Origin: Escherichia phage ECML-134
DNA: 64,000 nt
Strand: one strand, 5' to 3'
Sequence record: JX128259
The notes below the pieces were generated by a model that ran no database searches, was not told where the DNA came from, and saw only the letters and a list, made by a program, of their open reading frames with translations. This document shows, in pieces, positions 3,516 through 20,161 of the stretch. The position numbers and the translations under genes are program-made. Numbering within the stretch: the first letter of the stretch is position 1; each line of letters begins with the position of its first letter.

Positions 3516-3542
3516 AAAAAGCCCCAACCTTTCGGCTGGGGC
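3516..3542 (-). terminator. intrinsic terminator
   Basis: minus-strand GC-rich hairpin (GCCCCAGCCGAAAGGTTGGGGC) followed by UUUUU; downstream of 3551..4024. Confidence 0.65.
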
Positions 3543-3550
3543 TAAGAATG

Positions 3551-4024
3551 TTATTTGATTTGTTTAGCAGACCAAATGCGGTCTTTAATAATTTTTTGGA
3601 TGTCTTCAACATACTCAAGAGAGTGAGCATGTGGGTTATCTTTGAAACTATAAGCACGAGCTAGCTTTTGACCTTCGGTTTTGATTACTAAAAGCTCTTT
3701 AAGGATAGCTTCATATTTAGCGATAATTCCTTTAACGATATTTTTTTCTTGTGCAGCTTTAGGATCTGCTTTAGGAGCAGGTTTACCCGAAGCCTTTGCA
3801 AAAGCAGCGCCAGTAGCAACTAGACTTTTCCAGGCCATACTAACCGCATTTCCTGTAAATCCTTCTGCTTTCATGTCACGAGCAAATTGGAATCGCGATT
3901 CGTCAGAAGCATCTTTATAAGAATATTTACCCGCTGCAATGGCTGCTTTTGCGACAGCTTGAATTTCGGTGCTAGATGCTTCATTTAACACCGCTTCATT
4001 TAAAAATTGAGTATATGATTTCAT
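3551..4024 (-). CDS. internal head protein with capsid targeting sequence
   Basis: 157 aa; N-terminus MKSYTQFLNEA (CTS-like). Confidence 0.65.
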   Translation of the reverse strand: MKSYTQFLNEAVLNEASSTEIQAVAKAAIAAGKYSYKDASDESRFQFARDMKAEGFTGNAVSMAWKSLVATGAAFAKASGKPAPKADPKAAQEKNIVKGIIAKYEAILKELLVIKTEGQKLARAYSFKDNPHAHSLEYVEDIQKIIKDRIWSAKQIK

Positions 4025-4064
4025 CTTATTTCCTGTTTTAATTCGTGGATTTAATATACTACTA

Positions 4065-4072
4065 TATTTATA
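4065..4072 (-). promoter_or_regulatory. T4-type late promoter core (TATAAATA)
   Basis: plus TATTTATA = minus TATAAATA, about 40 nt upstream of the ATG at 4024. Confidence 0.5.
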
Positions 4073-4074
4073 CC

Positions 4075-4101
4075 AAAAAGCCCCAACCTTTCGGTCGGGG
4101 C
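4075..4101 (-). terminator. intrinsic terminator ending the tRNA/stable-RNA transcription unit
   Basis: near-identical copy of the 3516..3542 hairpin plus U-run, minus strand. Confidence 0.65.
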
Positions 4102-4104
4102 TAA

Positions 4105-4418
4105 GCCTTGCGGCAACCTTGTCGGGGTTCCACCTGCTAAGGCAAGTGTTTGTACGAAACGCCGGGATTCGAACCCGGTTATTAAGTAGTTGACGCTACT
4201 CAATATTTTTAAAAGGCCATATCTCGACCATATCCGAACGTTCCGTCAAAAACGCTACTCGGCTTATGGCAAAGATATTTCCTCGAATCGATAATTCGGT
4301 GCGCCGTTTCTGCTGTGATATAAGGGGGCATTAACAAAACATAAAGATTTATTAATGCCAGTCCTTAAACAGGGAACATCAGTCCGACGACTTGCCGGTA
4401 GCGACCCGGCTTCTTGTC
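4105..4418 (-). ncRNA. putative stable small RNA(s) with tRNA-like T-arm (species 1/2-like)
   Basis: no ORF; sits between tRNA-Arg and the terminator; T-arm-like CCGGG-TTCGAAT-CCCGG (plus 4162-4178); repeated GAGTAGCGT motif; no canonical cloverleaf. Confidence 0.35.
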
Positions 4419-4494
4419 TGGTCGAGGCAGTAGGGATCGAACCTACGACCCAGGACTTAGAAGGTCCTTGCTCTTCCTTCTGAGCTATGCCTCG
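4419..4494 (-). tRNA. tRNA-Arg (anticodon TCT)
   Basis: manual cloverleaf: acceptor CGAGGCA/TGCCTCG, loop CTTCTAA, T-loop TTCGATC, encoded CCA. Confidence 0.8.
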
Positions 4495-4498
4495 TATT

Positions 4499-4573
4499 TG
4501 GCGGACGTGATAGGATTCGAACCTATAACCAATCGCTTAACAGGCGATCGCTCTGCCATTGAGCTACACATCC
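4499..4573 (-). tRNA. tRNA-Asn (anticodon GTT)
   Basis: manual cloverleaf: acceptor GGATGTG/CACGTCC (one G-U), loop CTGTTAA, T-loop TTCGAAT, CCA. Confidence 0.75.
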
Positions 4574-4577
4574 AAAT

Positions 4578-4664
4578 TGGTGGGGAGTGGTGGAGTCGAA
4601 CCACCCGAGTCGCAATGACAATGGATTTACAGTCCACACCGCTACCTCTACGGGATAACTCCCC
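4578..4664 (-). tRNA. tRNA-Tyr (anticodon GTA), long variable arm
   Basis: manual cloverleaf: acceptor GGGGAGT/ACTCCCC, loop CTGTAAA, long variable arm, CCA. Confidence 0.7.
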
Positions 4665-19164: not shown

Positions 19165-20161
19165 TTCAAGTGTTATCTATCGTGCGATAGTTACTTCAAA
19201 ATTTAGAACAGAAAAAATGTTGAATTTTTATAATTCAATTGGAAGTGGTCCGGATAAAAACACTATCTTTATCACATTTGGAAGATCAGAACCATGGTCA
19301 TCAAATGAAAATGAGGTGGGCTTTGCCCCACCTTATCCAACCGATTCTGTATTAGGCGTAACTGACATGTGGACGCATATGATGGGAACCGTAAAGGTTC
19401 TTCCATCAATGCTTGATGCAGTTATTCCTCGTCGAGATTGGGGAGATACTAGATATCCGGATCCGTATACATTTAGAATTAACGATATTGTAGTGTGTAA
19501 CTCAGCTCCTTACAACGCTACTGAATCAGGCGCAGGCTGGTTAGTATATCGTTGTTTAGATGTTCCTGATACCGGAATGTGCTCAATAGCATCTTTAACT
19601 GATAAGGATGAATGCCTTAAATTAGGCGGAAAATGGACACCTTCTGTTAGGTCAATGACTCCTCCTGAAGGTCGAGGAGATGCTGAAGGAACAATTGAAC
19701 CTGGGGACGGGTATGTATGGGAATATCTATTTGAGATTCCACCCGATGTATCTATAAATAGATGCACGAATGAATATATCGTGGTTCCTTGGCCTGAGGA
19801 ATTAAAAGAAGACCCGACTAGATGGGGATATGAAGATAATCTCACTTGGCAACAAGATGATTTTGGATTAATTTACCGTGTTAAGGCAAATACTATCCGT
19901 TTTAAAGCATATTTAGATTCAGTTTATTTTCCTGAGGCTGCATTGCCGGGAAATAAAGGATTTAGACAAATATCAATAATCACGAATCCTCTTGAAGCTA
20001 AAGCTCATCCAAATGACCCAAACGTTAAAGCTGAAAAGGATTATTATGACCCAGAAGATTTAATGAGGCATTCGGGTGAAATGATTTATATGGAAAATAG
20101 GCCACCTATTATTATGGCAATGGATCAAACAGAAGAAATCAATATTCTGTTTACATTTTAA
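19157..20161 (+). CDS. 8: gp8 baseplate wedge protein
   Basis: 334 aa; T4 order and size. Confidence 0.85.
   Translation: MNDSSVIYRAIVTSKFRTEKMLNFYNSIGSGPDKNTIFITFGRSEPWSSNENEVGFAPPYPTDSVLGVTDMWTHMMGTVKVLPSMLDAVIPRRDWGDTRYPDPYTFRINDIVVCNSAPYNATESGAGWLVYRCLDVPDTGMCSIASLTDKDECLKLGGKWTPSVRSMTPPEGRGDAEGTIEPGDGYVWEYLFEIPPDVSINRCTNEYIVVPWPEELKEDPTRWGYEDNLTWQQDDFGLIYRVKANTIRFKAYLDSVYFPEAALPGNKGFRQISIITNPLEAKAHPNDPNVKAEKDYYDPEDLMRHSGEMIYMENRPPIIMAMDQTEEINILFTF

Follow-up and report, generated by a model that had tools for sequence, protein, structure and literature searches.

rnaD and rnaC orthologues at the 3' end of a T4-like phage tRNA operon, with covariation support for a tRNA-shaped rnaC fold

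Introduction

The T4 genes rnaC and rnaD were mapped about fifty years ago, in the 1970s. Species 1 RNA is cleaved by RNase III, and a p2Sp1 precursor is known. T4 deletion phages that lack the entire tRNA region still grow on laboratory hosts, so any function of rnaC or rnaD would be accessory. In the T4 RefSeq record (NC_000866), rnaD ('small, stable RNA; species 2 RNA') and rnaC ('species 1 RNA') directly follow tRNA-Arg, and the record of the RB3 tRNA cluster (AJ884578) annotates a 'species II RNA' and a 'species I RNA'. In T4, the eight tRNAs and the species I and II RNAs all derive from one primary transcript of about 1.75 kb, and transcription of the cluster terminates after the species I gene (PMC2330249). 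RNAC has been detected by northern blot, and both RNAC and RNAD are classed as late RNAs (PMC9697503). Their function is called unknown in a 2010 review (PMC3014915), a 2022 omics study (PMC9697503) and a 2025 evolution study (PMC12685909). Some reviews of T4-family genomes do not mention rnaC or rnaD.

Several other RNAs borrow part of the tRNA architecture. The tRNA-like domain of tmRNA, the bacterial Y-RNA-like YrlA and the 3' tRNA-like structures of plant viruses each place an acceptor/T-arm mimic on some other functional domain, which gives them access to tRNA-processing enzymes. Here we describe a phage locus whose rnaC orthologue has an acceptor/T-arm module of this kind. Both rnaC and rnaD are already known genes and are not new. 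Our additions are incremental: a covariation-supported fold for rnaC, a candidate kissing loop within it, a modular distribution of the two genes across phage genera, and a note on their mis-annotation.

Results

The window (the whole stretch of DNA analysed here, 64,000 nt) comes from a Tequatrovirus (T4-like) phage. ARAGORN and Rfam identify nine minus-strand tRNAs in it: Gln, Leu and Gly, then Ser, Thr, Met(CAU), Tyr, Asn and Arg. Positions 4105-4418, on the same strand, hold orthologues of two annotated T4 genes, rnaD and rnaC, and align base for base with both as annotated in NC_000866 (Table 1). By blastn, 800 phage records match, nearly all of them from Tequatrovirus or close relatives, with rnaC annotated beneath the match; between 4060 and 4430 the identity to Escherichia phage vB_EcoM_SCS4 is 100%. 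Complete E. coli genomes gave zero blastn matches to the element, which is therefore not a host or prophage RNA. Homology places this segment at the 3' end of the phage tRNA operon, where rnaD, rnaC and a structured trailer lead to an intrinsic terminator. The original prediction, made from the letters alone, had described a single non-coding segment and suggested a stable RNA at the site where T4 encodes species 1 and 2. Homology to T4 rnaD and rnaC and to the RB3 record proves the latter proposal right. The non-coding stretch is likewise real, but it is not one element, as it holds two separate RNAs plus the trailer.

Table 1. Features of the tRNA operon 3' end, in window coordinates and in order of transcription
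Feature	Coordinates	Strand	Remarks
tRNA-Arg(UCU)	4419..4494	-	last tRNA of the cluster and immediate upstream neighbour; encoded CCA ends at 4419
rnaD (species 2 RNA) orthologue, 120 nt	4298..4417	-	homology; first base 2 nt past the tRNA-Arg CCA
Spacer between rnaD and rnaC, 6 nt, GAAUUA	4292..4297	-	mapped from T4 RefSeq annotation
rnaC (species 1 RNA) orthologue, 139 nt	4153..4291	-	T4 RefSeq boundaries
rnaC acceptor-like stem, 5' strand, nt 2-8, CGAUUCG	4284..4290	-	pairs with 4161..4155 (nt 131-137)
rnaC long arm, nt 9-78 (70 nt)	4214..4283	-	D-arm position; stacked helices, apical loop UUGACG
rnaC hairpin B, nt 87-112	4180..4205	-	anticodon-arm position; 10-bp stem, invariant 6-nt loop CGUCAA
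rnaC T-arm, nt 114-130, CCGGG-UUCGAAU-CCCGG	4162..4178	-	stem 114-118 with 126-130; covaries
rnaC acceptor 3' strand CGUUUCG and UACA tail	4151..4161 (4161..4155; 4154..4151)	-	UACA replaces NCCA
Conserved 3' trailer, about 50 nt	4103..4152	-	small hairpins; conservation among relatives
Intrinsic terminator, AGCCCCGACC-GAAA-GGUUGGGGCU + UUUUU	4074..4102 (hairpin 4102..4079)	-	end of the tRNA operon transcript

The rnaC orthologue is identical to T4 rnaC (NC_000866 70908..71046) at 137 of 139 positions when the two are mapped pairwise over their full length. T4 rnaC is likewise 139 nt long and lies between rnaD and the operon terminator, and the two substitutions that separate the sequences (G25A and U66C) are both compatible with the fold described below. 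The downstream neighbourhood differs from that of T4, with an extra ORF between duplicated terminators. The ends of rnaC depend slightly on the source, since the T4 RefSeq and RB3 annotations disagree by 1-2 nt at each of them: following RB3, the gene would lie at 4290..4151 (CGAUU...CGUACA), starting at C2 and ending in UACA. With the RB3 boundaries, the trailer shares 2 nt with the rnaC 3' end. The rnaD orthologue is 100% identical to RB3 rnaD (AJ884578 870..990) and about 86-87% identical to T4 rnaD (NC_000866 71053..71171); in both of those phages rnaD directly follows tRNA-Arg, as it does here. Compared with T4 rnaD, the 5' and 3' thirds match and the apical hairpin is a different variant.

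The terminator expected at the end of the segment lies just beyond its downstream edge. A 10-bp stem with seven G-C pairs, a GAAA loop and a following run of TTTTT qualify it as an intrinsic terminator, and the corresponding element is annotated as such in GiZh and fPS-2. Within the trailer, conservation of ACACUUGCCU..AGCAGGUGGAACCCCGACAAGG extends to Dhakavirus and Gaprivervirus.

Many GenBank records place a 'hypothetical protein' at this locus, which raises the question of whether the segment encodes small proteins. CDS features overlie the match in several deposited genomes, and ORFs of 22-50 aa are present on both strands. These ORFs are short, overlap one another on the two strands and mostly begin with TTG, and no ORF that touches 4060-4430 exceeds 50 aa. 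Homologues differ by 1-nt indels inside the conserved region, and substitutions occur as doubles that preserve base pairs, which is the signature of an RNA structure. These observations agree with the original prediction, which had described the segment as non-coding, and we give the coding interpretation almost no credence.

To define the structure of rnaC, we used an alignment of 19 distinct homologues from at least five named Tevenvirinae genera and from metagenomic contigs; the sources were Tequatrovirus, Gaprivervirus, Karamvirus (several subtypes), Moonvirus, Tegunavirus, phage EcS1 and several IMG/VR contigs. The length of the RNA ranges only from 138 to 141 nt among them. The consensus fold from RNAalifold agrees with the minimum free energy (MFE) fold of the single sequence. 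In this fold, 96.1% of alignment cells are standard pairs and 18 pairs show double compensatory changes; slid controls, in which pairing partners were displaced by 1-3 columns, gave 36-45% and 1-3 pairs, respectively. None of 500 shuffles matched the observed values for pairing and double changes. The MFE of rnaC is -50.6 kcal/mol (z = -5.2 vs shuffles), and a 350-nt precursor folds with z = -7.5 vs shuffles. Against the rnaC family covariance model (R1) the orthologue scores 165.5 bits, and it is the sole copy in the window. Covariation thus shows a predicted rnaC fold in the form of a tRNA-shaped four-way junction.

Each arm of this junction has comparative support. In the acceptor-like stem, A4-U135 is exchanged for G4-C135 (9 vs 10 sequences), and where the T4-type acceptor has its two U.U mismatches, Tegunavirus has U-A and C-G pairs. 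The position of the D-arm is taken by the long arm, a stack of helices at nt 9-11/76-78, 15-19/68-72, 22-27/60-65, 30-33/55-58 and 37-42/49-54. The second, third and fifth of these are 100% paired and include six pairs with compensatory changes; the 44-nt core of the arm (nt 22-65) is nearly invariant across homologues. An A/U-rich linker lies between the long arm and hairpin B. The stem of hairpin B (nt 87-96 with 103-112) has compensatory changes in eight of its ten pairs, and one unpaired base separates it from the T-arm. T-stem variants among the homologues are CCGGG/CCCGG, CCUGG/CCAGG and CUUGG/CCAAG. The T-loop of CIP9-like Karamvirus phages is UGCAUGC, which is not of the tRNA type, so not every homologue needs a complete tRNA-like elbow. 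In phage TG1, the tail at the UACA position reads UUCA.

All the sequence features from which the original prediction had started are present on the minus strand: the perfect T-arm, the adjoining 7-nt acceptor-like segment that ends without CCA (CGTTTCG, then TACA), and a repeated motif (GAGTAGCGT) whose two copies, at 4260..4252 and 4201..4193, are the only ones in the window. Strong hairpins were also foreseen, and the shuffle z-scores for rnaC, its precursor and rnaD (see below) bear this out. The view that no complete cloverleaf exists does not stand, because a cloverleaf-like four-way junction forms once the rnaC 5' end (4290..4284) serves as the 5' strand of the acceptor.

How close is rnaC to a tRNA? 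Perfect 5-bp hairpins around TTCRANN occur nine times in the window; seven are the T-arms of annotated tRNAs, one is that of rnaC, and one is a chance AAAAA/TTTTT match at 19229. Dinucleotide shuffles contain 0.71 such hairpins on average and 3 at most. With canonical tRNA (RF00005), rnaC shares a 7-bp acceptor beside a 5-bp T-stem, a UUCGAAU loop and a four-way junction; the acceptor and the T-stem/T-loop are of the tRNA (UUCRANY) type, with two U.U acceptor mismatches in T4-type sequences. When a genuine tRNA-Asn of an unrelated contig is aligned to the rnaC covariance model, the match spans the full model and lacks nothing but the 70-nt arm. The differences are equally clear. Unlike a tRNA, rnaC has that 70-nt arm in place of a D-arm, a hairpin with a 10-bp stem and 6-nt loop in place of a 5-bp stem and 7-nt anticodon loop, and a UACA tail in place of CCA.

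Standard searches do not assign rnaC to a described family. Within 4103-4418, RF00005 gave no match at E <= 10 (threshold 29 bits) and ARAGORN made no tRNA call. No Rfam family reached its gathering score in the region, and at E <= 10 there were only chance-level matches, among them a weak tRNA-Sec match to rnaC of 17-19 bits. For tmRNA, ARAGORN again made no call, and the permuted-tmRNA model matched the T-arm with only 10 bits (E = 9.7). YrlA (RF02553) had no match on rnaC at E <= 10, its only weak one (19 bits) being on the genuine tRNAs at 4468-4532. Neither sequence nor covariance models relate rnaC to tmRNA, YrlA or the plant-virus tRNA-like structures. It has no tag reading frame, and its architecture, in which a giant arm occupies the D position and a kissing loop is a candidate contact, is a different one.

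Another acceptor, of 8 bp, in which nt 46-53 (ACGGAACG) pair with nt 131-138, is implied both by the weak tRNA-Sec alignment and by ARAGORN, which calls the phage PG7 homologue a 'tRNA-Met'. We rejected this model. One of its pairs is A-C in Moonvirus and Karamvirus, three pairs are broken in Tegunavirus (TG1), and G49 covaries with U42, against the model. A fold constrained to the 8-bp acceptor reaches -36.9 kcal/mol as compared with -50.6 kcal/mol, which is 13.7 kcal/mol worse.

It could still be proposed that rnaC is aminoacylated, either as a tmRNA-type RNA or as an atypical tRNA whose D-arm holds an insertion or an intron. The 7-bp acceptor, the canonical T-arm and a 4-nt UACA or UUCA tail resembling NCCA would suit such a role, as would the 95-nt 'tRNA-Met' that ARAGORN reports in Karamvirus (PG7) and the tRNA-Sec match. 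The acceptor that underlies both of the latter is contradicted by the comparative data, though, and removal of the long arm leaves no D-arm, only a 6-nt loop. There is also no encoded CCA, tmRNA call, tag ORF, G3-U70 pair or other obvious identity element. A chargeable RNA is thus a very improbable reading of rnaC.

Two loops of rnaC may contact each other. UUGACG, which caps the long arm (4249..4244), is the exact reverse complement of CGUCAA, the loop of hairpin B (4195..4190), and the loops are complementary at 6/6 Watson-Crick positions in 19/19 rnaC sequences. In the Tegunavirus-type sequences TG1 and L022, both loops change jointly, to UUGAUG and CAUCAA, which converts a C-G pair to U-A. 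A 6-bp kissing interaction, intramolecular or intermolecular, is plausible on the basis of this complementarity and of one independent compensatory event. Such a contact may be sterically demanding, given a length of about 24 bp for the arm and of 10 bp for the hairpin.

The companion RNA, rnaD, is a separate molecule made up of a hairpin and a long stem; it is less conserved than rnaC and is not tRNA-like. Its 5' hairpin (GCCGG-GUCGCUA-CCGGC, 4410..4394) is followed by a long imperfect stem closed by GUCGUCG (4391..4385) with CGGCG-CAC (4306..4299). Across the 15 homologues on which the structure rests, the 5' hairpin has the form (A/G)CCGG-GUCGCUA-CCGG(U/C), with a covarying closing pair. 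The closing helix of the long stem is invariant, and the alignment speaks neither for nor against it. The RNAalifold fold contains 24 pairs. Six of them have double changes (0-1 for slid controls), and the share of paired cells is 97.5% (33-52% for slid controls). The MFE is -39.1 kcal/mol (z = -3.8 vs shuffles). The apical hairpin differs by lineage, with three unrelated versions among relatives. The earlier idea of a tRNA-derived element fits rnaC, in the sense of a tRNA-like architecture.

The two genes do not always travel together. In the Dhakavirus phages dhabil and JS10, rnaC is absent and rnaD is joined straight to the trailer. In Karamvirus, Moonvirus and Tegunavirus, rnaC occurs without rnaD inside tRNA arrays, at their middle or start. 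In PG7 and Moon, 6 nt separate the end of the upstream tRNA from rnaC C2; in PG7, Moon and TG1, the next tRNA begins 8-10 nt past the last acceptor base of rnaC. As judged from these gene orders, rnaC and rnaD occur independently and, given its tRNA-like spacing inside arrays without rnaD, rnaC behaves like a tRNA-gene cassette. Pattern scans of IMG/VR and metagenomes for more distant rnaC homologues returned only lineages already found, and a shorter pattern hit about 120 chance loci, none of them an rnaC match by the covariance model. With PG7 and TG1 rnaC as queries, blastn added no further named genus except for one record labelled Mosigvirus. Mis-annotation is recurrent, as the element is labelled tRNA-Met or 'hypothetical protein' in many deposited genomes.

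This patchy distribution bears on the proposal that the segment is functionless, either a decaying tRNA pseudogene or leftover spacer in which the T-arm is a relic. Each gene is evidently dispensable, rnaC being absent in Dhakavirus and rnaD in the three genera above, and the lack of a tRNA or tmRNA call, of an Rfam match at threshold and of an encoded CCA is what a decayed gene would show. Decay does not fit the 18 pairs kept by compensatory double changes across genera, the nearly invariant core of the long arm, the narrow range of lengths or a fold energy far below that of shuffles. Moreover, the T4 homologues accumulate as discrete RNAs (PMC9697503; 'small, stable RNA' in the T4 RefSeq record). 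The degenerate tRNA that the original prediction had entertained is likewise contradicted by strong purifying and compensatory selection across genera and by an ordered arm of non-tRNA type. We consider a functionless relic extremely improbable.

Discussion

Taken together, the best explanation of this locus joins four elements: the identity of the two RNAs as rnaD and rnaC, a tRNA-shaped rnaC fold, tRNA-like processing, and an accessory function. We hold this reading as a whole to be very probably correct, with the accessory function as its speculative part.

The shape of rnaC and its context suggest how it may be made. We propose that host tRNA-maturation machinery excises rnaC from the polycistronic transcript by way of its acceptor/T-arm module, as it does the neighbouring tRNAs. 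RNase P would cleave just 5' of C2 (with U as the -1 base), and exonucleases would trim the 3' side as far as the UACA tail. This single RNase P cleavage would also set the 3' side of rnaD, which could then be trimmed to its closing stem. More speculatively, the tRNA-like module would serve biogenesis and stability, and the working part would be the nearly invariant 44-nt core of the long arm, which may bind a host or phage factor, be it protein or RNA.

Alternatively, the segment could be a purely cis-acting module for processing and termination, which gives RNase P a place to enter, blocks exonucleases, supplies the terminator and releases the RNAs as inert by-products. Its site at the 3' end of the operon, directly before the terminator, is where such a module would be expected, and an acceptor/T-arm is a typical RNase P recognition shape. 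The 3' end of rnaD can also pair with the 3' strand of rnaC in the unprocessed precursor. Against a cis role, rnaC stands in the middle or at the start of arrays in Karamvirus, Moonvirus and Tegunavirus with its core sequence unchanged, and Dhakavirus has rnaD without rnaC. A near-invariant 44-nt arm and invariant complementary loops also exceed what punctuation needs. For these reasons we think a purely cis-acting module unlikely.

What these RNAs do can be approached from recent work on T4-like phages. When a T4-like phage was evolved on a semi-permissive host, 3/3 lines acquired the same rnaD SNP (PMC12685909), and the tRNA-Tyr of the cluster counteracts Septu, a tRNA-cleaving defence system (PMC13096335). 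These are hints that point to a host-specific role. One speculative possibility, to which we give limited weight, is that rnaC and rnaD are accessory RNAs that influence phage growth in a host-dependent way, perhaps as decoys for, or modulators of, host functions directed at tRNA or other RNA. A more specific version is decidedly doubtful: rnaC would represent a distinct class of phage tRNA mimic, in which a sequence-invariant 70-nt arm replaces the D-arm and a 6-bp kissing loop locks it to the counterpart of the anticodon arm. Such a mimic would work in trans, decoying or inhibiting some host function directed at tRNAs, and rnaD would be a second, independently mobile modulator of host range. 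Possible targets of the mimic include a tRNA-cleaving defence system and an enzyme of processing or repair. A simple decoy of anticodon nucleases is made less likely by the 6-nt loop of hairpin B, which does not mimic an anticodon loop, and the replaced T-loop sequence of CIP9-like Karamvirus phages also speaks against a simple decoy role.

As a gene finding, this result is minor, as the phage simply carries the long-known rnaC and rnaD. The comparative model nevertheless turns the label 'stable RNA' into specific, testable mutants. If the two RNAs are host-range or counter-defence factors, they would extend the view of phage tRNA clusters as anti-defence islands. Should the tRNA-mimic interpretation of rnaC prove true, the last two genes of the T-even tRNA cluster would be RNA-based counter-defence factors.

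The species 2 and species 1 stable RNAs, rnaD and rnaC, are independent modules. Both are sited 3' of tRNA-Arg in the tRNA operon of the window, and related genera carry either without the other. In Dhakavirus (phage dhabil, record L006, 1212-1440; phage JS10, record L032), the trailer, a conserved segment of about 50 nt that follows rnaC in the window, is joined directly to rnaD, and rnaC is absent. The tRNA arrays of Karamvirus, Moonvirus and Tegunavirus (records L005, L008, L009 and L010) contain rnaC and lack rnaD.

Loops of rnaC vary as well. In CIP9-like Enterobacter phages, a Karamvirus subgroup (records L014, 5960-6099, L027 and L029), the T-loop reads UGCAUGC rather than UUCGAAU, although the T-stem is preserved. 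Also remodelled in these phages is the basal internal loop of the long arm, which reads AA/GG in T4.

Both RNAs are misannotated in many records. The rnaC homologue of Enterobacter phage PG7 (L005, 1554-1648) is recorded as a 95-nt 'tRNA-Met', a label also present in SonariX, IME523, Q7622 and other Karamvirus records. ARAGORN reproduces this call, which we reject because it needs an acceptor pairing that comparative data contradict. In many Tequatrovirus records, rnaC and rnaD are covered by CDS features named 'hypothetical protein'.

Two complementarities between the RNAs were observed. The invariant loop and closing base of the rnaD 5' hairpin, GUCGCUAC (4399-4405, minus strand), are complementary to two copies of GUAGCG in rnaC (4253-4258 and 4194-4199, minus strand), each inside a repeated GAGUAGCGU motif. 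The match may lack significance, since rnaC retains the motif in genera without rnaD. In the minimum free energy fold of the unprocessed 350-nt precursor, GAAACG in the 3' segment of rnaD (4303-4308, minus strand) pairs with CGUUUC in the 3' strand of the rnaC acceptor (4156-4161, minus strand), in competition with the acceptor stem, which has two U.U mismatches. This predicted pairing may act as a switch in processing order.

Features in and near the tRNA operon, all on the minus strand
Feature	Position	Evidence
GIY-YIG homing-endonuclease-like ORF, free-standing, 216 aa	4927-5577	Pfam GIY-YIG, 26.1 bits; SegE_GIY-YIG; NUMOD3
tRNA-Tyr(GUA), phage	4578-4664	Rfam tRNA model, 30.3 bits
Terminator hairpin, upstream copy	4079-4102	nearly identical to downstream copy
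T4 late-promoter motif TATAAATA, ahead of 157-aa ORF	4072..4065	
ORF, 157 aa, bracketed by both terminator hairpins	3551-4024	
Terminator hairpin, downstream copy	3520-3543	nearly identical to upstream copy

Within the cluster, tRNA-Tyr scores close to the model threshold of 29 bits, whereas neighbouring tRNAs reach 59-74 bits. The T6 tRNA-Tyr of the same cluster is reported to be both the target of Septu defence and the counter-measure against it (2026; PMC13096335). The GIY-YIG ORF is flanked by tRNA-Gly and tRNA-Ser; in RB3 and GiZh its site is occupied by tRNA-Pro, which was not found in the window. T4 segB lies elsewhere, in the tRNA-Ile/tRNA-Arg interval.

Beyond the cluster, the 157-aa ORF has no Pfam match. 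Yersinia phage fPS-2 shares the terminator-ORF-terminator layout, whereas T4 lacks the ORF, which looks like an insertion via terminator duplication.
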